From the UHGV virus genome UHGV-0183838: a DNA stretch of 29,982 nt; one strand, 5' to 3'. Source of the stretch: a virus. Below the pieces are notes generated by a model. It was not told the DNA's origin, made no database searches, and worked only from the letters and a program-made list of their open reading frames with translations. Below are positions 2,075-24,012 of the stretch, piece after piece; the stretch's first letter is position 1, and each line of letters starts with the position of its first letter. Both the position numbers and the translations under genes were made by a program.

Positions 2075-3775
2075 ATGCATTTAGTCACGAAATCTTATTT
2101 CGATGCCTTTTGCAAAGCATTCGCTGCGCCCTATGAGGAGACCAAAAATTTTGAGGCGTTTGTGAACTATTGTGCTTTTTCAAAATACTCAGGCGACAAA
2201 GTTGAGGTCAGTGATCTTGTGTATGAAGGCCCGGACCCTGGTATTGATGGCGCATTTTTATTTTTAGACGACAGAGCCATTTTTTCAACTGAAGAACTTC
2301 AGGAGATTTTCCAAAACTCACGTCGCGAGTTTCAAGTTTCATTAATATTCACGCAAGCTAAGTCATCGGAGAAGTGGAGCAAACAGGAAATAGACTCTTA
2401 CATTGCGTCAATAAGAGATTATCTTTCACCAGCGCCACAACAACCCCACAGTGAATATCTAGCGGACTTTAAAAAAATGTTCAACTTGATATTTGCTAAT
2501 ATCGGCAGAGTCAAAAATGGCCTTCCAGACTTATACGCATATTTTTTTAGTGCTGCACAAAATACAGAGGCCAGAGAAATAAAAGCTGCATTTGCATCGG
2601 GTGAAAAAAGCTTAAAGTCACTCGGGTTTTCACATGAAACATCCTTCATTATGGCTCACAAAGACATGATTCATGAGCTTTGGCTTGCTGCGGAAGGTCC
2701 AATAGAAGCTAAACTTCCTACAATAGGCTATGCTCCATTCCCAGCGGCCCCTAATATTAATAATGCCTATGTAGCTACAGTCAAAGCTCGTAGTTTTATT
2801 GATTCTATACTTAAAGACAAAAATGGAAACCCTCGAAAAAAATTATTCGAAGAAAATGTTAGAGATTTTCTGGGAATTGATGGTGACGTAAATTCAGAAA
2901 TTGCAGGAACACTAGATACTGATGGAAAAAAAGCAAGATTTGGTTTAATGAATAATGGAGTGACAATAGTTGCATCAAGCGTGAGGCCTGCAGGGCAAGA
3001 AATTTTTATACGAGATTTTCAAATTGTTAATGGATGTCAAACGTCTAATGTTCTTATATCAAAAGACATTCAAGTAGATGAATCAGTTAGTTTAATGATT
3101 AAATTAATTGAAACCGATGAGCCAGCGATCCTTGATGACATTGTACGAGCTACGAATAGACAATCTAAAGTTGAAGATGCACAGTTCATTTCAACGCTAA
3201 AAAAATTAAGGGAATTAGAGCATTATTTTAATGCTAAAGGTGCTATTGAAGGAAATAAAATTTATTTTGAGAGAAGAAAGGGGCAGTATAGTTCAGAAAG
3301 TATAGCTCCAGTACGCATATTTGATATCAGAGAAGTTGCGCGAGCATATGCTGCTATTGTTATGATGAGACCAGATTATTCCAGTCGTTATCCAAATAGG
3401 TTAACTGGTGACTTACTTAATGAGGTTTTCTCTTCCGATGCCCTCGAGGATGATTATTATATATCTTGCTATTGCTTGTATAGGCTAAAGGCTCTTATCT
3501 CAAATAAGAGGTTTGATGGGAAGTATTCAAAATTACGCTGGCATATTCTAACTGCTGCGTCAAAATACTGTGGTAATAATTATAAGGTTTGGGGGTTCAA
3601 AAATAAAAATGAAGCTCTTCATAACTTATTCTCAATGAATGATGGGGAGTGGTTTGAAAAACTTGAGAGTTTAGTAAAAATAGCTATACCAGATCCGGAT
3701 ATTTCTCGAGACTTACTAAAGTCGCAGCCTTTAACATCAACGATTCTCAAAAGTGTTGATAGCGTACCTAAATAA
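2075..3775 (+). CDS. AIPR-like (abortive infection phage resistance family) protein, candidate anti-phage defense cargo
   Basis: 566 aa from ATG 2075 with SD AAAGGAG at 2063-2069 (the track ORF starts upstream at 1988). Contains the motif FQIVNGCQTSNVLI, which I recall as the conserved NGxQT signature of AIPR proteins. The gene is strikingly AT-rich compared with flanking phage genes and sits between int and xis. Confidence 0.6.
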   Translation: MHLVTKSYFDAFCKAFAAPYEETKNFEAFVNYCAFSKYSGDKVEVSDLVYEGPDPGIDGAFLFLDDRAIFSTEELQEIFQNSRREFQVSLIFTQAKSSEKWSKQEIDSYIASIRDYLSPAPQQPHSEYLADFKKMFNLIFANIGRVKNGLPDLYAYFFSAAQNTEAREIKAAFASGEKSLKSLGFSHETSFIMAHKDMIHELWLAAEGPIEAKLPTIGYAPFPAAPNINNAYVATVKARSFIDSILKDKNGNPRKKLFEENVRDFLGIDGDVNSEIAGTLDTDGKKARFGLMNNGVTIVASSVRPAGQEIFIRDFQIVNGCQTSNVLISKDIQVDESVSLMIKLIETDEPAILDDIVRATNRQSKVEDAQFISTLKKLRELEHYFNAKGAIEGNKIYFERRKGQYSSESIAPVRIFDIREVARAYAAIVMMRPDYSSRYPNRLTGDLLNEVFSSDALEDDYYISCYCLYRLKALISNKRFDGKYSKLRWHILTAASKYCGNNYKVWGFKNKNEALHNLFSMNDGEWFEKLESLVKIAIPDPDISRDLLKSQPLTSTILKSVDSVPK

Positions 3776-3782
3776 AGAGAAG

Positions 3783-3801
3783 GGAAGCTTATTGCTTCCC
3801 A
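3783..3801. terminator. Hairpin between convergent AIPR-like gene and xis (candidate bidirectional terminator)
   Basis: Perfect 7-bp inverted repeat GGGAAGC-ttatt-GCTTCCC 8 bp after the AIPR stop, with A/T-rich flanks on both sides. Confidence 0.4.
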
Positions 3802-4013
3802 ATAAATTAACACACTTATAGAACCCTTGACTTAAACTTTTTACTGGTTCTCTCAGATATCGATAATTTTATAGGTTGTATCATAGCGTGATCGTCTTCA
3901 AGAGAAACAACTTAACATTAAATTAGCAACGTTTGCTCTTGGCACAGACTTGACTGTCAGATTAGTTTGGTCTGTGCCATAGATATGTCAGCTCCCATCT
4001 GAGATAATACACG

Positions 4014-4208
4014 TTACTCAATAACTCCAGCAAATCTGTATATCTTGCGTGATGCCCATTTATTTGGGCAGGATTTAATATCAGGATCTGGAAAGTCAGG
4101 CCTGTATTTCTGGCCAGTTCTCCTGTTTACGCTGTTCCAGCGAAGAACAGTCGATACTGAAACGCCACAGAAGTCGGCGACTTGTTTAGTTGTCATTAAG
4201 TTGTTCAT
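4014..4208 (-). CDS. xis: Excisionase / AlpA-like small DNA-binding protein
   Basis: 64 aa with HTH-like segment TTKQVADFCGVSVSTVLRW; located next to int; start overlaps the upstream gene's stop as TAATG. Confidence 0.7.
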   Translation of the reverse strand: MNNLMTTKQVADFCGVSVSTVLRWNSVNRRTGQKYRPDFPDPDIKSCPNKWASRKIYRFAGVIE

Positions 4209-4828
4209 TACTTCACCTCCTGCGGCGGCTCCGGTAGCGGCATCCAGTGGGTTACTTTCGATGCCGGTTCTTCCCCATCGTCAGTAACTGCCCACCATTT
4301 GTTTCTCGACCAATCGTAATACCCTTCGAAGGTATCGCACTCAGTCCAGCCGTAAGGCTTCCCCCAACACCAAACATACTGTTTATCGTTCGGCATTCGC
4401 TCACTACAGCTTATCCAACCATCCGGAGTTACCGGAGAGTTGCCCGACAGCTTGTTCAACTTGTAAGTCTGGCTTACAGGTTCGGCACCATGAAGCATGG
4501 CGGCGCGGCAGGCGTTCCAGCCTTCATCAAAACCGACTATGCCATTATTTAAAGACGGACGAGCATCTGGCACCACCGGCACTGGCTTGGCTATATATAG
4601 CGGCTGAACATACCAGCCCTTTGATAACCAACTGTCAGCAATGTTTTTACTCCTCGTTATTGCCGGAATACCTAAGCCATTTTCTGAATGCAGCCATGCC
4701 ACCGGCTCCTCTTCTAGCGATGCCAGAGCAATTTCATAAGCACGGCGCTCAATATCGTCTCGAACCTCTAGGCTGCTGATTCGTTCTTTGATTTCTTTAA
4801 TCAGTTCTTTATTGGTAAATGTGGTCAT
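4208..4828 (-). CDS. DUF551-like phage protein
   Basis: 206 aa with a Trp-rich C-terminal region (WISCSERMPNDKQYVWCWGKPYGW...WWAV...THWMPLP) typical of DUF551 proteins in lambdoid early-left operons; TAATG overlap with the upstream gene. Confidence 0.65.
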   Translation of the reverse strand: MTTFTNKELIKEIKERISSLEVRDDIERRAYEIALASLEEEPVAWLHSENGLGIPAITRSKNIADSWLSKGWYVQPLYIAKPVPVVPDARPSLNNGIVGFDEGWNACRAAMLHGAEPVSQTYKLNKLSGNSPVTPDGWISCSERMPNDKQYVWCWGKPYGWTECDTFEGYYDWSRNKWWAVTDDGEEPASKVTHWMPLPEPPQEVK

Positions 4829-5190
4829 TATGCTCCAGCCTCCGGTGCTTTTGGCATTACTGCCCAGTGAGTGATATTGACGTTTTCAAGGTCCCCGACC
4901 TGAAATGTCCACTGCCATTCTCCGGTTTCTTTTTGTCCCCAGGTGTACCAGAGAGAACGCCAGCCAATCAGCCAGCCTTCTCCATTAGCATCAAATAACA
5001 GAACACTTTCATTTGCTGGTGGCAGTTCAGCTGACACTGGTATTATTTTGTTTTCCAGTGCCGCACATTTAGCTTCAAGCGCGTCGAATTTACGTACCAG
5101 GTACTCAGCATTTGTTTCGTTCACTTTCAGATCTCGCGGTACACATTTCCCGCGAAGAAACCCTTCCATTTCGAAAACATTCATGCGCAT
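4828..5190 (-). CDS. Hypothetical phage protein with DUF551-like C-terminus
   Basis: 120 aa; C-terminus (GEWQWTFQVGDLENVNITHWAVMP) resembles the neighbouring DUF551-like protein; GGAG 8 nt upstream of the ATG. Confidence 0.55.
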   Translation of the reverse strand: MRMNVFEMEGFLRGKCVPRDLKVNETNAEYLVRKFDALEAKCAALENKIIPVSAELPPANESVLLFDANGEGWLIGWRSLWYTWGQKETGEWQWTFQVGDLENVNITHWAVMPKAPEAGA

Positions 5191-5717
5191 TTGCGTAACT
5201 CCGATAAATCGTTAAAACGTTCCATAAACATCCCGTAGGCATGACCCGGTGCCAGTGGAATCACGTTGAACATCTCTGTTGCCGGGATGCCTTCCAGTAC
5301 AGGCCAGAAAGAGCCATCATCAAGCCCGAGATCGCGGCGTTCGGTTGCCAGCATGATGAGATCGGCATATTTCACGGGCGTACTCATAACTGGGGGTAAC
5401 CCGTATTTCTCACGGATTACGGCGTCTATTTTTTCTTCCATCCGTTTATAGTCAGGAAGAAGTCGTTTCAGTGGTGCGGGGATGTCCTGGCAATATGCTT
5501 CTGTTGCATCATGCATTAACGCTTCAAAAGCAAATTCCTGCGGTACCAGCTGGCTGCAAAGCACCGCATGTTGGGCGACGCTGTAGAAGTGTGAAAGATG
5601 CCCTGCAAAGCGACAGATATTTGAAAGGGAAACCGCGATATCGTTAATAACGATGTCGTCTTTATTTATCTTGTCATAATAAAAATGCTTCCCGGAAAAA
5701 GTTTTAATAAATGACAT
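5181..5717 (-). CDS. yfdR: HD-domain phosphohydrolase, YfdR-like 5'-deoxynucleotidase
   Basis: 179 aa from the internal ATG at 5717 (GGAG upstream); HD signature residues (FAGHLSH...VAQHA...LMHDATEAY). Resembles the CPS-53 prophage YfdR family. Confidence 0.7.
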   Translation of the reverse strand: MSFIKTFSGKHFYYDKINKDDIVINDIAVSLSNICRFAGHLSHFYSVAQHAVLCSQLVPQEFAFEALMHDATEAYCQDIPAPLKRLLPDYKRMEEKIDAVIREKYGLPPVMSTPVKYADLIMLATERRDLGLDDGSFWPVLEGIPATEMFNVIPLAPGHAYGMFMERFNDLSELRKCA

Positions 5718-5845
5718 TTTGTTCTCCACGTTATGTGCGCTGCACCGCACTGAATTTTGGTAAAAAGAAGCCCTTACCATCCGGCGATTATTGAGTTAAT
5801 TACGTTTCCATAAATGCCCCCGCAGGGGCATTTGCAGTAATGAAA

Positions 5846-6735: not shown

Positions 6736-7098
6736 TTAATGACCTGCTGCGCGGAGTTTTCCGTCAGGTTCACCGGCAAGAGTCAGTAATTGTCCCTGGT
6801 CTTCCTGCAGAATAGTCAGGCGACCACCGCGATTGACATACATCGGCGTTTCGGTGGTGTCTTCTTCGGAAATTTTCCCGCGGTTAGTCGGGCGAACATA
6901 TGAGAGTTTGTGTTTGATTTTCACACGGTTCTCATCAAATGGTTCGATTTCCAGGTTGAGTGAGACCTTACCTTTGGTTTTCGTGTTCATCACACCTGAA
7001 GCGACTTCACTGAGAACTGCGCCGATTTTGGTTTCAAATACGCCGCCGTCCAGCTCCCCGATAAATGCCTGCACATCAGTACTGCGTTCGCTAGCCAT
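6736..7098 (-). CDS. YfdP-like small phage protein
   Basis: 120 aa from ATG 7098 (MASERSTDVQ...) with GAGGAG 8 nt upstream; the longer track ORF (to 7284) has no RBS and runs through a structured non-coding region. Confidence 0.55.
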   Translation of the reverse strand: MASERSTDVQAFIGELDGGVFETKIGAVLSEVASGVMNTKTKGKVSLNLEIEPFDENRVKIKHKLSYVRPTNRGKISEEDTTETPMYVNRGGRLTILQEDQGQLLTLAGEPDGKLRAAGH

Positions 7099-7146
7099 TT
7101 TGCTGCTCCTCATCATATCGACCCTGCAAGGTCGGTTGGTTTCTCC

Positions 7147-7235
7147 ACAAAACAGAGAAGAACACCTGCGGTGGCAGCCGCCCGGATGGATTGGGTTATG
7201 AGCCCGTCGTCCGGTGATGCTCTTCTCTGTTTTGT
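7147..7235. other. Long perfect inverted repeat (15-bp arms) in the leader of the leftward early operon
   Basis: ACAAAACAGAGAAGA at 7147-7161 and its exact reverse complement TCTTCTCTGTTTTGT at 7221-7235; a second 10-bp inverted repeat GCGGTACCAG/CTGGTACCGC at 7243-7252 and 7272-7281. No T-run follows, so not a typical intrinsic terminator. Confidence 0.4.
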
Positions 7236-7726
7236 AAAAAGAGCGGTACCAGCCGGAAGCAAGTGTACAAACTGGTACCGCCAAAGCAGTGGCTGTTGTG
7301 GTGACCGGTGCTGATCTCCGGCTTGCGGTTATTTCAGACTCTCACGGGCGTTTAATTGCCCCGCCGAACAGCTCTTTTCCGCATTAGCTGCAATGTCTTT
7401 CGCGCATCAGCCTGCGCATTCACCACAACGCTGAGAGCACTTAGCCAGTTACGGCACCACACTTTGTCGCGGCTCCATAAATGCCCTCATCGTTGCACCC
7501 TGGTCTCTTCCCAGGCGTCAAACCGGATCGCCACGCTGGTTAGGCGTCTTATCAGCATCATCATTGACTTGCACATTCCGGCTACCTGGTTTGTTTGCCC
7601 GAGCAAGGAGTGGATTGTCCCCTTTAACGTCCCCAGACCGCTAACGACGCATGTGCCATACGCCGTGTTACAACCAAATTTTGTTAGTACCTTGTTTGTT
7701 TGTCTGGAAAGAAAGATAAAATGAAG

Positions 7727-7765
7727 TTGCGCATTATGCAAGTGTTTTTGTTGCGAGATATGCAA
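7727..7765. promoter_or_regulatory. Candidate left operator pair (oL-like) for the CI repressor
   Basis: Two 15-bp sites TTGCGCATTATGCAA (7727-7741) and TTGCGAGATATGCAA (7751-7765) sharing the pattern TTGCG-N6-GCAA with a site at 8534-8548 in the cI/cro intergenic region. Confidence 0.45.
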
Positions 7766-7780
7766 TTTAAAGGGTAATGA

Positions 7781-7801
7781 AAAGCCACCTTTGGGTGGCT
7801 A
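7781..7801 (-). terminator. Rho-independent terminator downstream of cI
   Basis: AGCCACC-tttg-GGTGGCT hairpin; on the minus strand it is followed by a T-rich tract, about 20 bp after the cI stop. Confidence 0.5.
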
Positions 7802-7820
7802 ATTGATGAGGAGGTAAGGG

Positions 7821-8513
7821 TTAATTGTGTCGCTTAAGGGTTTGTGACTGGCTGATTAAGACCTTTCCAAAGACCATAAACCGGTGTTCATTTTCGCTGG
7901 TAATTCCCCATTCACGGTAAATCTGGTTATCAGAAATCACCAGTAGTTTGTCAGGTATCATTTGCAGTCGTTTGACATAAATTTTATCATCAAAACCAAA
8001 TACATAGATACCATCTCCATCAAACTGATTGATACTGACATCAACGAAGATGAGATCTCCTGGCTCAATGGTTGGACACATACTGTCCCCACGAACGTTG
8101 ATAACTTTAATGTGATTGGCTGGCCGTCCGCCAAACATCGATACAGCATTATCAGTTCTGTATTCAATGGCATGAATCACATCAATGACATCACCGCCCT
8201 GGATAAGGCCATTTCCCGCACTGGCACTGACATCCAGCATTTCAATACGGAATACATCCTTCACCTGCGCAACATCCTCACTAATACTGTTTTTACATAC
8301 AGTATTACTTTTGAAGTCTGAGGTAAAGAGATCAGCAATATCAACACCTAAGCTCCTGGCAATATTACTCAGGGCTTGTTCAGTGAATTGTTTCTGCTTA
8401 CCTGTTTCCAGGCGTGAGATATTCGCCGCATCCACTCCTATTGCTTCAGCGAGATCGGCGATTTTCATGTTCTTCGCCTGGCGAAGTTGTCTGACTCGGT
8501 TTCCTATGTTCAT
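7821..8513 (-). CDS. cI: CI-like prophage repressor (XRE-type HTH plus S24 LexA-like autopeptidase domain)
   Basis: 230 aa; N-terminal HTH (IADLAEAIGVDAANISRLETGK), C-terminal S24 motifs (GDSMCPTI, KRL); divergent from a Cro-like gene. Confidence 0.9.
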   Translation of the reverse strand: MNIGNRVRQLRQAKNMKIADLAEAIGVDAANISRLETGKQKQFTEQALSNIARSLGVDIADLFTSDFKSNTVCKNSISEDVAQVKDVFRIEMLDVSASAGNGLIQGGDVIDVIHAIEYRTDNAVSMFGGRPANHIKVINVRGDSMCPTIEPGDLIFVDVSINQFDGDGIYVFGFDDKIYVKRLQMIPDKLLVISDNQIYREWGITSENEHRFMVFGKVLISQSQTLKRHN

Positions 8514-15921: not shown

Positions 15922-16221
15922 AAAAATTCCTTAATACTGATAACTGGGCGCACTATACACACCTTCCTGAAGAAAGCTATAGTTTTTTGATGGGGTTGAA
16001 GATGGCTGGATGTCTAAAATAAACATTGCTTCATATGTTCAACTATGCGTTAATGATTGCGTCGGTTTGAAGAACAGACGATATACGAAGTAGTTTACTA
16101 AAGCAGTTCTCATTTCAGGTGTTATTCACTTATTCCTTCTTTGAGTCTCTCCAATTAAGTACGAAGTCGTTTCTGTTATACAAGCCATTTATGCCGAAAG
16201 GCTCAAGTTAAGGAATGTAGA

Positions 16222-16437
16222 ATGTCAAATAAAATGACTGGTTTAGTAAAATGGTTTAACGCTGATAAAGGTTTTGGCTTTATTTCTCCTGTTGATGGTA
16301 GTAAAGATGTGTTTGTGCATTTTTCTGCGATTCAGAATGATAATTTTCGAACCTTATTTGAAGGTCAAAAGGTTACCTTCTCTGTAGAGAGTGGTGCTAA
16401 AGGTCCTGCAGCAGCAAATGTCATAATTACTGATTAA
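16222..16437 (+). CDS. cspB: Cold-shock protein CspB-like
   Basis: 71 aa; [53 protein letters not shown]... carries canonical CspA-family motifs; divergent from the CspF/H-like gene. Confidence 0.85.
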
Positions 16438-16719
16438 AATTCATAGTTTGTCTGTATACGATAACGAAGAAGGCTGATGCCTGAGTGGAGATACAGACAG
16501 AGTGGTGAATATTGGATCTCTTTAATAAATAGTAAGGAGGTCCAATACATGAAACAATGGCCAGCATATTTGGCAATAACTTAATCAGGAAAAGTATGCT
16601 AACCATTGTGGTGAAGTGCAGGTTTGCTGCATGAATAGTTTTACAGCAGAAGCTAACTGCTGGCATAGCAAAACAAAGTGCGTAAGTGGATGACTCCCAC
16701 AAAAAGCACCACAATATTA

Positions 16720-18807: not shown

Positions 18808-19169
18808 GGTAATATTAAATCGGAACATTTACATCGCGGAATGTAAAATTTAAATAAAAAGGACTCTTCCATGAGCCAAAATTCCTGAAATCTTAAGGGT
18901 AAGATAAAAGGTCTTAATCAGAATGACACGTTTTATTAATAAATAAAGCTATTCTTTCATTGCTGTGTTTTTCTTTACAAAAGTAATCCTTGCTATGGGT
19001 GGTTAATCATGAGTTAATGGTGTTCTGGTTTGTTACAAATTTATCTGAAGCAGTCATTGTTATAATTTTATTATTTGTACCTCTTGAGATTTCCTTGTTG
19101 GTTTTTCTCTCTGATATTTTTTTTCGGACCATTCTGCCCAAGGGCTAATTTCTTCAAAAGGTAATAATT

Positions 19170-19382
19170 ATGTCTAACAAAATGACTGGTTTAGTGAAAT
19201 GGTTTAACCCTGAAAAAGGTTTTGGTTTCATCACGCCGAAAGATGGCAGCAAAGATGTGTTTGTCCATTTCTCAGCAATTCAGAGCAACGATTTCAAAAC
19301 ATTAACTGAGAATCAGGAAGTTGAATTTGGTATTGAGAACGGACCTAAAGGTCCTGCCGCTGTTCATGTAGTGGCGCTTTGA
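19170..19382 (+). CDS. cspI: Cold-shock protein CspI-like
   Basis: 70 aa; [53 protein letters not shown]...; preceded by a long ~360-bp AT-rich leader as is typical for csp genes. Confidence 0.85.
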
Positions 19383-19587
19383 GGTAGACAATATTACAAA
19401 CCATATTCACTTTAGATGCCCGTGTTGTCATGGTTCCCAGTATAGAACATCATCTTTTGATGTTTCTGACATGAATCCTTTCGGGGCAAAATGTATCTTT
19501 TGTAAATCAATGATGATTACATTTGATAATATTTCACAATACTTAAATGTTAGCCATCTGTCGTTAGATTTAAGAAAGTGAAAATGA

Positions 19588-22112: not shown

Positions 22113-24012
22113 TGCAGCCGGTGCGATAGCTACAGGGCTTTTATCTCTCATTATTCCTGTTCCACTGACGACAGTTCAGTGGGCCAATAAACATTATTAC
22201 CTTCCTAAAGAGTCGTCTTATACCCCGGGGCGGTGGGAAACACTGCCGTTTCAGGTTGGCATCATGAACTGTATGGGCAACGATCTGATTCGCACGGTTA
22301 ACCTGATTAAATCTGCCCGTGTTGGTTATACAAAGATGTTGCTGGGAGTGGAGGCTTATTTTATTGAGCATAAATCACGCAACAGCCTTCTTTTTCAGCC
22401 CACGGACTCAGCTGCTGAAGATTTTATGAAATCTCATGTTGAGCCAACGATAAGGGATGTTCCTGCATTGCTGGAGCTGGCTCCATGGTTCGGAAGAAAA
22501 CACCGCGATAATACGCTCACCCTGAAGCGTTTTTCCTCCGGTGTGGGGTTCTGGTGTCTGGGTGGTGCGGCAGCAAAAAACTACCGTGAAAAATCCGTGG
22601 ATGTGGTCTGTTATGACGAGCTTTCCTCGTTCGAACCGGATGTTGAAAAAGAGGGTTCGCCAACCCTGCTGGGGGATAAACGTATTGAGGGCTCTGTATG
22701 GCCAAAATCCATTCGCGGCTCGACGCCTAAAATCAAAGGCTCCTGCCAGATCGAAAAAGCCGCTAACGAGTCGGCACACTTCATGCGTTTTTATGTGCCC
22801 TGTCCGCACTGTGGGGAGGAGCAGTATCTGAAATTTGGCGATGATGCCTCGCCTTTCGGTCTTAAGTGGGAGAAGAATAAGCCAGAAAGTGTTTTCTACC
22901 TTTGTGAGCATCATGGCTGTGTGATCCATCAGTCTGAGCTTGACCAGAGTAACGGGCGGTGGATCTGTGAAAACACGGGCATGTGGACCCGTGACGGCCT
23001 GATGTTTTTCAGCGCCCGGGGTGATGAAATTCCGCCGCCGCGCTCCATCACTTTCCATATCTGGACGGCGTACAGTCCGTTCACCACCTGGGTACAGATT
23101 GTCTATGACTGGCTGGATGCACTGAAAGATCCCAACGGCCTGAAAACCTTTGTGAACACCACGCTGGGCGAGACCTGGGAAGAGGCTGTGGGCGAAAAAC
23201 TCGATCACCAGGTGCTGATGGATAAGGTTGTGCGTTACACGGCGGCGGTGCCTGCCCGGGTGGTTTATCTGACGGCGGGCATTGACTCGCAGCGAAACCG
23301 TTTTGAGATGTATGTCTGGGGATGGGCTCCGGGAGAGGAAGCCTTTCTGGTGGATAAAATCATCATTATGGGGCGTCCCGATGAGGAAGAGACGCTGTTA
23401 CGTGTGGATGCGGCGATCAACAAAAAATACCGCCATGCAGACGGAACCGAAATGACTATTTCCCGTGTCTGCTGGGACATCGGGGGGATCGATGGCGAAA
23501 TCGTTTATCAGAGGTCAAAAAAACACGGTGTTTTCCGGGTGCTGCCGGTAAAAGGCGCATCTGTCTATGGCAAGCCGGTGATCACCATGCCAAAAACCCG
23601 CAATCAGCGGGGCGTGTATCTGTGTGAAGTGGGGACGGACACCGCAAAAGAAATTCTCTATGCCCGTATGAAAGCCGATCCCACGCCTGTGGATGAAGCC
23701 ACGTCGTATGCCATCCGTTTTCCTGATGATCCGGAGATTTTTTCGCAGACAGAGGCGCAGCAACTGGTCGCGGAAGAGCTTGTGGAGAAGTGGGAAAAAG
23801 GAAAGATGCGTCTGCTGTGGGATAACAAAAAGCGGCGTAACGAAGCGCTGGACTGCCTGGTGTATGCCTACGCGGCATTACGTGTGTCCGTGCAACGCTG
23901 GCAGCTTGATCTGGCTGTACTGGCAAAATCCCGGGAAGAAGAGACGACCCGGCCAACCCTTAAAGAACTGGCAGCGAAGCTGTCCGGAGGAGTGAATGGT
24001 TACAGTCGCTGA
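22084..24012 (+). CDS. A: Terminase large subunit (lambda gpA-like)
   Basis: 642 aa from ATG 22084 (overlaps the Nu1 3' end as in lambda); extensive resemblance to gpA ([23 protein letters not shown]..., [42 protein letters not shown]). Confidence 0.9.

Follow-up and report, generated by a model that had tools for sequence, protein, structure and literature searches.

How does transcription of the early-left operon get beyond the conserved terminator at its start in lambdoid prophages that lack N? This question is raised by positions 7099-7726 of the virus genome UHGV-0183838, one strand of which (29,982 nucleotides, called the window from here on, with all coordinates given as positions in it) was analyzed. 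Sequence similarity searches identified the window as an mEp460/SfV-like prophage. According to the list of open reading frames (ORFs) the stretch is the gap between a repressor-like gene at 7821-8513(-) and yfdP at 6736-7098(-), the coordinates of the latter matching those of the Prokaryotic Genome Annotation Pipeline (PGAP). It occupies the place of N in textbook lambdoid phages. An earlier sequence-only reading had described it as a non-coding, G+C-rich, structured and leftward transcribed leader without N, which held, and had preferred antitermination of the put type of phage HK022, which did not. Our analysis indicates that the stretch is probably a leftward-transcribed array of non-coding RNA elements and not an antitermination leader. 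In the order of transcription these elements are a structured RNA (module C), a tRNA-shaped RNA (module B), an intrinsic terminator and a long hairpin (module A) (Table 1).

Both inverted repeats described before were recovered by repeat search. ACAAAACAGAGAAGA at 7147-7161 pairs perfectly over 15 bp with TCTTCTCTGTTTTGT at 7221-7235 at a spacing of 59 nt, and this repeat grows to 25-nt arms with 84% complementarity. The second repeat, perfect over 10 bp (7243-7252 and 7272-7281), encloses a loop of 19 nt. The higher G+C content was likewise confirmed (0.53-0.55 over 7000-7600, 0.39-0.47 in the flanks). Folding of the 628-nt minus strand yielded -236 kcal/mol compared with -202 ± 4.8 kcal/mol for shuffled sequences (z = -7.2), in agreement with the strong structure that had been claimed. 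Repeats and folding exceed chance, as each part of the stretch is kept in many other phages with compensatory base changes. At least part of it is present in 2838 of 5426 complete E. coli genomes. CPS-53 of E. coli K-12, which was considered and rejected as an experimental proxy, lacks all three modules. Plasmids account for 487 of the 4308 places matching 7099-7726 in E. coli genomes, which fits P1-like phage-plasmids carrying modules B and C.

A large part of the stretch is identical to a published small RNA (sRNA). For sRNA-17 of E. coli K1 RS218 a length of 193 nt was determined by 5'/3' rapid amplification of cDNA ends (RACE), and the RNA was visible on Northern blots (PMC7719688). It was placed on the window by means of the primers and the alignment of that study. 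Within 7237-7443, matches were obtained for all of the full-length, RACE, Northern and deletion primers, and the supplementary alignment matches the window sequence. The RACE 3' end (approximately 7237) lies inside the U-tract that follows the 10-bp repeat. Thus, this repeat is the intrinsic terminator of sRNA-17, and the fallback interpretation of the sequence-only reading, an sRNA or a processing or attenuation element, was correct.

Published expression data fit this assignment. RNA sequencing of the wild-type lysogen gave 0.49 reads for yfdP and 0 reads for yfdR, and sRNA-17 was detectable (PMC7719688). Consequently, leftward transcription appears to stop at the terminator without read-through. 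The same two genes were the most increased ones once a cassette replaced the sRNA-17 body (PMC7719688). These strongest reported "targets" are the genes located cis-downstream of sRNA-17, and their response to the deletion suggests an efficient terminator and an effect in cis. The authors proposed a separate ArcA-controlled promoter and reported binding of ArcA to the fragment 7431-7679 (PMC7719688). This "promoter" fragment is the region of module C. Between modules C and B no sigma-70-like promoter for sRNA-17 was found, either by scan or by eye.

Upstream of its terminator sRNA-17 contains module B. The family plan joins a closing helix through an AAU junction to hairpin A with the loop GGCUGA. 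Next comes a variable arm, whose length lies between 15 and more than 170 nt, and then hairpin B with the loop AGAUCAGCA, from which the RNA continues directly into the closing-helix 3' strand. In an alignment of 100 distinct cores (A1) 96.8% of the cells pair, compared with 27-50% in slid controls. Changes on both sides were observed for 15 of the 23 pairs (137 cells), and none of 500 shuffles reached any of these measures. Variable arms are not part of the module A and module B alignments. The window core, which is row 1 of A1, forms all 23 pairs. The complementarity of GCUGA and UCAGC in the two loops is nearly invariant, with one compensatory change and six G-U pairs.

Module B is widespread. 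An exact 23-mer of the core lies at 7402-7424(-) with a chance expectation of 0 and is present in a single copy in the 30-kb window. At least 150 cultured phages, among them HK620, HK629, P1 and D6, carry this 23-nt core without any change, and exact copies lie in 104 stretches from genomes that represent species of Alpha-, Beta- and Gammaproteobacteria. At least 120 IMG/VR matches were obtained with the 5' motif and at least 120 with the 3' motif, counts from all collection scans being lower bounds. Such extreme conservation across bacterial classes suggests a conserved host partner. The P1 copy (stretch L004 3780-3900, minus strand) is located antisense across the upl/plp junction in the ban operon, and upl and plp may be mis-annotations of an RNA gene.

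Several observations relate module B to tRNAs. The minimal members measure 66-87 nt. At 66 nt the middle arm is lacking, and members of 78-87 nt fold into cloverleafs with four arms. tRNA genes are located within 1.5 kb of module B in 23 of 120 listed loci, on the same strand in all of them, and some start 7-13 nt downstream. Of 277 copies of module B, 87 are preceded by the leader AGTGCTCT. Where module C and the leader AAGUGCUCUCAGCGUU come first, they are followed by tRNA-Arg(UCU) in 28 copies, as in the Uetakeviruses, and by module B in 24. A third cargo (GUUGUGGUAAUCCGCGAAAUGGCGCGGCGGUAAGUAUGGCGGGG...) replaces module B or tRNA-Arg after module C and the leader in the IMG/VR contigs L229, L262 and L285, which suggests a cassette-like slot. 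One variable arm of module B encloses a sequence that ARAGORN called as tRNA-Pro. Nevertheless, module B is not a degenerate tRNA, since ARAGORN found 0 tRNA genes in the window and RF00005 gave no match at E up to 10 on the window module B or on the 87-nt minimal member. Its layout is tRNA-like, but it is not a member of the tRNA family.

Module C was detected with a covariance model (R1) that scored 146 bits on the window (E = 2e-49) and 140 bits on the P1 copy. The corresponding alignment (A2, 24 sequences of less than 93% identity) showed pairing in 98.6% of the cells and nine pairs changing on both sides, a number that was reached by 0 of 500 shuffles. This RNA was found in Uetakevirus phages, P1, mEp390 and more than 120 IMG/VR contigs. 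Because modules C and A contain invariant G-U pairs, the minus strand is the RNA strand. A pairing of CAUGCGUCG with UGACGCC was rejected, as it had no covariation support, and was replaced by the local hairpin 7-11/21-25. An additional weak R1 match in the late/structural region of the window at 23541-23652(+) (10.3 bits, E = 0.024) is probably noise.

Module C is also the most plausible carrier of the put-like function favored by the sequence-only reading, in which the nascent leader RNA would bind RNA polymerase, make it resistant to terminators without any protein and replace N. Indeed, the ORF list, Pfam, PHROG and PGAP revealed no arginine-rich antiterminator of the N type encoded in the interval from pL to the first early-left gene, and the downstream terminator needs to be overcome in lytic growth. 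Module C lies close behind the putative pL, follows a promoter-like site in Uetakeviruses and stands downstream of the repressor gene in mEp390, a phage that belongs with HK022 to one subfamily. Inspection by eye showed the first stem of module C (CGGCG/CGUCG after CAUG) in putL as well. However, comparison with HK022, in which putL and putR were located by the numbering of PMC9378689, revealed no relationship. A blastn search (word size 7) against the HK022 early region gave chance matches only. In the covariance-model comparison that had been proposed as a check, R1 reached at most 0.5 bits on putL and putR (HK022 3600-5800, filters off). With its approximately 180 nt module C has another architecture than the two-stem put RNA of approximately 70 nt. 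No second copy of module A, B or C is present in the 30-kb window, hence there is no putR-like partner of module C in the rightward operon. Furthermore, the P1 module C is located in mid-operon after a tRNA, and in the lysogen sRNA-17 ends at the terminator with yfdP and yfdR silent. Put-like antitermination is therefore very unlikely.

The 10-bp perfect stem of the terminator extends to 13 pairs. A simple terminator scan passed over 7283-7236, its loop limit being 8 nt. A boxA-like sequence, CGCUCUUUUUA, noticed by eye at 7246-7236, is in reality the 3' shoulder of the terminator with the U-tract and is not kept in homologues. Module A follows immediately. For 89 of 93 unique copies the final U of an intrinsic terminator (hairpin and T-tract) is where the module A stem begins, with no spacing. 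The apex of module A reads CACCGGRCGACGGGCUCAUAACCCAAUCCAYCCGG, and a conserved GGAGAAAC follows the stem (7146-7139). In the module A alignment (A3) 95.8% of the cells pair and eight pairs change on both sides, which 0 of 500 shuffles reached. The first gene 3' of module A varies (YfdP-like, Sb37-like, RdgC-like and others), and the upstream region contains module B in 19 and module C in 26 of 91 copies. ST64B and phiNP keep the plan of terminator and module A with different upstream cargo. Thus, what stays constant in this early-left operon without N is the unit of terminator and module A, and modules B and C are cargo that can be exchanged. In the gap that separates the repressor gene from the sb37-like gene, ST64B and phiNP carry another conserved element right after pL (AACAGCGAACAGGCAGGACGCCCACGAAGUAGCCGCC...GAUGAUUCGCUG). 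A cloverleaf resembling module B, with an identical closing helix but other loops, is present in ST64B in addition.

Terminator and module A might act together as a regulated gate of the early-left operon, a possibility that we consider rather doubtful but which would complement and not exclude the RNA array. Module A would then have one of two roles. It would be recognized as RNA by an antiterminator or RNA-binding protein that the phage encodes, or it would be an RNase III-type site whose cleavage in read-through transcripts changes how stable they are or how they are translated. The abutment to a terminator whatever gene comes next points in this direction. Covariation is seen in the stem but not in the apex, whose invariance suggests a specific ligand. 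RNAfold predicted that the U-tract of the terminator pairs with a conserved GGAGAA, giving the module A stem 25 pairs. The hairpin in the lambda N leader sits just before the first ribosome-binding site (RBS), and module A has the same position directly before the first RBS. In the related prophage the only annotated antitermination protein is Q-like and encoded far to the right. On the other hand, module A lies past the terminator and cannot itself prevent termination there; it is present in a single copy per phage, and any binding protein or cleavage site is hypothetical.

Table 1. Elements of the early-left leader and segments common to other phages.
Feature	Position	Strand	Description and basis
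Candidate oL	7726-7765		Two 16-bp operator-like repeats of TTGC-N7-GCAA type; repeat search, operator function predicted
Putative pL	7713-7741	(-)	-35 TTGCAT 7741-7736, 17-nt spacer, -10 TATCTT 7718-7713; read from sequence
Module C	7493-7670	(-)	Conserved structured RNA of ~180 nt with two variable hairpins; starts ~35 nt after the putative pL
Linker	7429-7492	(-)	Ends in conserved leader AAGUGCUCUCAGCG (7442-7429)
sRNA-17	7237-7430	(-)	Module B, C/A-rich linker and terminator; PMC7719688 Table S2 primers and supplementary alignment
Module B	7296-7428	(-)	Cloverleaf tRNA-shaped RNA; closing helix 7428-7421/7303-7296
Hairpin A of module B	7417-7402	(-)	Loop GGCUGA
Variable insert of module B	7401-7323	(-)	
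Hairpin B of module B	7322-7304	(-)	Loop AGAUCAGCA
Intrinsic terminator	7236-7283	(-)	GC-rich hairpin, then UCUUUUU; repeat search, folds, RACE 3' end in U-tract
Module A	7139-7235	(-)	Long hairpin with 20-bp lower stem (holds the 15-bp repeat), conserved apex and variable hairpin
Small hairpin and RBS	7099-7136	(-)	Hairpin 7117-7136 and RBS GAGGAG before yfdP start codon at 7098
Shared segment	7099-7283		Common to SfV, SfIV and Kati
Shared segment	7294-7442		Common to P1-like phage RCS47
Shared segment	7423-7666		Common to Uetakeviruses, there adjoining tRNA-Arg
Shared segment	7502-7679		Common to P1 and P7, between trnI and ban
Core of ~42 nt + ~28 nt			Ackermannviridae, Swiduovirus swi2, other siphovirus-sized phages, Edwardsiella and Erwinia phages; always unannotated gaps

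The non-coding nature of the stretch was examined in several ways. PGAP annotation of 7099-7726 is absent in the 20 best-matching RefSeq E. coli genomes and in JJ1886, and its ORFs have no Pfam match, which confirms that there is no credible gene and no N gene. The statement that only peptides of 10-30 aa can be read on the minus strand was wrong, since mechanical ORFs of 36, 49 and 92 aa exist there. Together with an ORF of 122 aa on the plus strand, and with the "hypothetical proteins" that some depositors of related phages annotated here, these ORFs are what a hidden small N-like or other regulatory protein in the leader could be based on. However, the depositors' annotations conflict in strand. 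PHROG matches are found on ORFs of both strands over one hairpin and are for this reason annotation artefacts. Moreover, the 92-aa ORF begins upstream of the putative -10 element, insertions among homologues are not multiples of three, and substitutions keep base pairs and not reading frames. A hidden protein is thus extremely improbable. The opposite-strand ORFs over module A match phrog_33599 and phrog_3651 (window 7113-7262(-) and 7171-7314(+)), two families which were probably built from spurious ORF calls.

A distant blastn search revealed that the leader is a mosaic in which separate segments are common to separate phages (Table 1). Since the segments are swapped as blocks among unrelated phages, and since binding of ArcA was reported for 7431-7679, the conservation might reflect a role at the DNA level, either as a recombination "linker" at the boundaries of mosaic modules or as a protein-binding site. 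Yet the helices are maintained by compensatory changes, the invariant G-U pairs would be A-C mismatches on the opposite strand, a stable RNA with defined ends was observed, and the elements share the strand of the neighboring tRNAs in 23 of 23 cases. We regard a DNA-level role as very unlikely. Homology to phages of other immunity types ends at approximately 7685. The modules are therefore not accompanied by a conserved promoter of their own. Further upstream the candidate oL consists of GTTGCGCATTATGCAA at 7726-7741 and GTTGCGAGATATGCAA at 7750-7765, and a further TTGC-N7-GCAA site is present in the cI-cro intergenic region. The putative pL overlaps an operator repeat; it was not flagged by a consensus promoter scan.

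From these data the following model of an RNA array was derived. Transcription would start at the repressor-controlled pL, predicted near 7706 from the promoter-like sequence. Module C would be made first, followed by the short conserved leader and the module B cloverleaf, whose loops GCUGA and UCAGC would pair like a tRNA elbow with the variable arm in the place of the anticodon arm. The terminator at 7283-7236 would end most transcripts, and processing near 7430 would give the stable 193-nt sRNA-17. Processing was inferred here in place of a second start, as no promoter-like site was found there and the leader stands before a genuine tRNA in other phages. Any polymerase getting past the terminator would transcribe module A before reaching the first early-left gene, and this hairpin may serve as an RNase III-type or protein-binding site controlling the early-left mRNA. 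In the model terminator and module A would gate or process this mRNA. Modules B and C would be optional cargo swapped among many phage types, probably acting in trans on a conserved host component.

Several points weigh against this model. If the ArcA promoter inside module C is right, sRNA-17 is a primary transcript and pL is not its source. The RNA is detectable in uninduced lysogens, in which pL should be repressed. The RACE 5' end at 7430 is located 4 nt upstream of the position that matches the 5' end of tRNA-Arg, so that canonical RNase P cleavage is at most a candidate for producing it. The cassette inserted in the deletion mutant might account for the increased yfdP expression. For module B, tRNA detectors do not call it, and the loop-loop contact is a proposal that is not proven by covariation. 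Likewise, all roles assigned to modules A and C are proposals.

Taken together, module B would found an undescribed, widespread class of tRNA-shaped phage RNAs, terminator and module A would form an N-independent early-left switch in many N-less lambdoid prophages, and module C would be a third new RNA class travelling with tRNA-like cargo. We put this joint reading forward tentatively, as plausible but short of probable. If it is true, candidates for the partner of module B are a tRNA-processing or tRNA-binding enzyme, or a tRNA-targeting defence that is decoyed by module B. The virulence-linked sRNA-17 would be recast as one member of a broad phage RNA family, its reported promoter would itself be a structured RNA, and its top "targets" would, as the data suggest, reflect cis effects. 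The three covarying motifs are absent from Rfam and possibly represent new families. Once they are described, such RNA stretches would no longer be miscalled as "hypothetical proteins" in hundreds of phage genomes, upl and plp of P1 being possible examples.

Rfam 15 gave only noise in the window at 6900-7900 with E up to 10, and no family was found on modules B or C in 20 other loci. The best match was a sub-threshold one to isrJ, a Salmonella sRNA, at L043 6563-6616 (30.3 bits against a gathering threshold of 37, E = 4e-4). The match spans the 3' tail and the terminator behind a module B copy in one relative, and IsrJ may derive from such a tail. Two other Rfam families occur near the modules: DUF3800-VII 9 nt after a module B copy (locus L196 1341-1425), and int-alpA, which in Enterobacter phage Tyrion shares its strand with modules C and B (L217 536-600). 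Elsewhere in the window cspA thermoregulator matches were obtained at 16061-16500(+) and 19024-19409(+) (156.5 and 112.8 bits); they belong to cold-shock-protein-type genes with long 5' leaders in the late region of the prophage. A literature search by sequence strings gave no match, and a keyword search for tRNA-like phage RNAs with kissing loops retrieved only work on GOLLD and ROOL.

Several known phage RNAs were rejected as relatives. An anti-sRNA of the AgvB type was considered, as CACCACAACA resembles a GcvB target, but AgvB measures 51-60 nt and is located at the pR' moron site. The conservation of CACCACAACA is explained by structure because it forms the paired 3' strand of the module B closing helix. 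No relationship exists to the Pas sRNAs, which map to the late region close to Q and the holin gene. This also holds for the M3 RNA of phi80, a classic RNase P substrate, which is an annotated oop homologue near cII in a phage that has N and nutL.

In comparison with known systems, the leader resembles HK022 putL and putR in containing promoter-proximal structured RNAs in an early operon of a phage without a functional N-type antiterminator. It differs from them in size and architecture, in the lack of any sequence or model similarity, in having one copy and in the termination observed downstream in the lysogen. Module A, as a long hairpin just upstream of the first early-left gene, recalls the RNase III hairpin of the lambda N leader and, as its full stem is formed only in transcripts reading through a terminator, also the sib retroregulator. 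There is no sequence relation to either, and cleavage of module A by RNase III is only predicted.

Like DicF from the dicBF operon of prophage Qin and the RNAs of the P1 ban operon, the RNAs described here are non-coding, belong to a repressor-controlled early operon and would derive from a longer transcript. Besides a dicF-like region and three tRNAs, both module B and module C are present in the ban operon. DicF itself has no homology here according to Rfam, and the RNAs of the window are larger, with conserved tertiary-looking cores. sRNA-17 is the same element in an mEp460-like prophage, with its 3' end at the same terminator. It was published as an isolated ArcA-controlled base-pairing sRNA without Rfam homologue (PMC7719688). 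That description did not include the covarying cloverleaf core, the wider family in phages and bacterial classes or module A, and it treated module C as promoter DNA.

GOLLD and ROOL are likewise phage-borne, highly conserved structured RNAs of unknown function that are often found beside tRNA genes. Module B differs from them in being far smaller, in having no Rfam match and in its occurrence in proteobacterial phages. Module B departs from tRNAs in its loops, GGCUGA and AGAUCAGCA, whose sequences are not those of D- and T-loops and between which five Watson-Crick pairs could form. Its middle arm is 15 to more than 170 nt long, and CCA is encoded in only 17 of 161 copies. With tRNAs and tRNA-like domains such as the YrlA Y-RNA module and the tmRNA domain, module B shares a 7-bp closing helix and three arms in cloverleaf order. 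As in tRNAs, its last arm continues into the 3' strand of the closing helix, and its minimal members have a length of 66-87 nt. Finally, module B is found within same-strand tRNA clusters and is interchangeable with tRNA-Arg behind the same leader.
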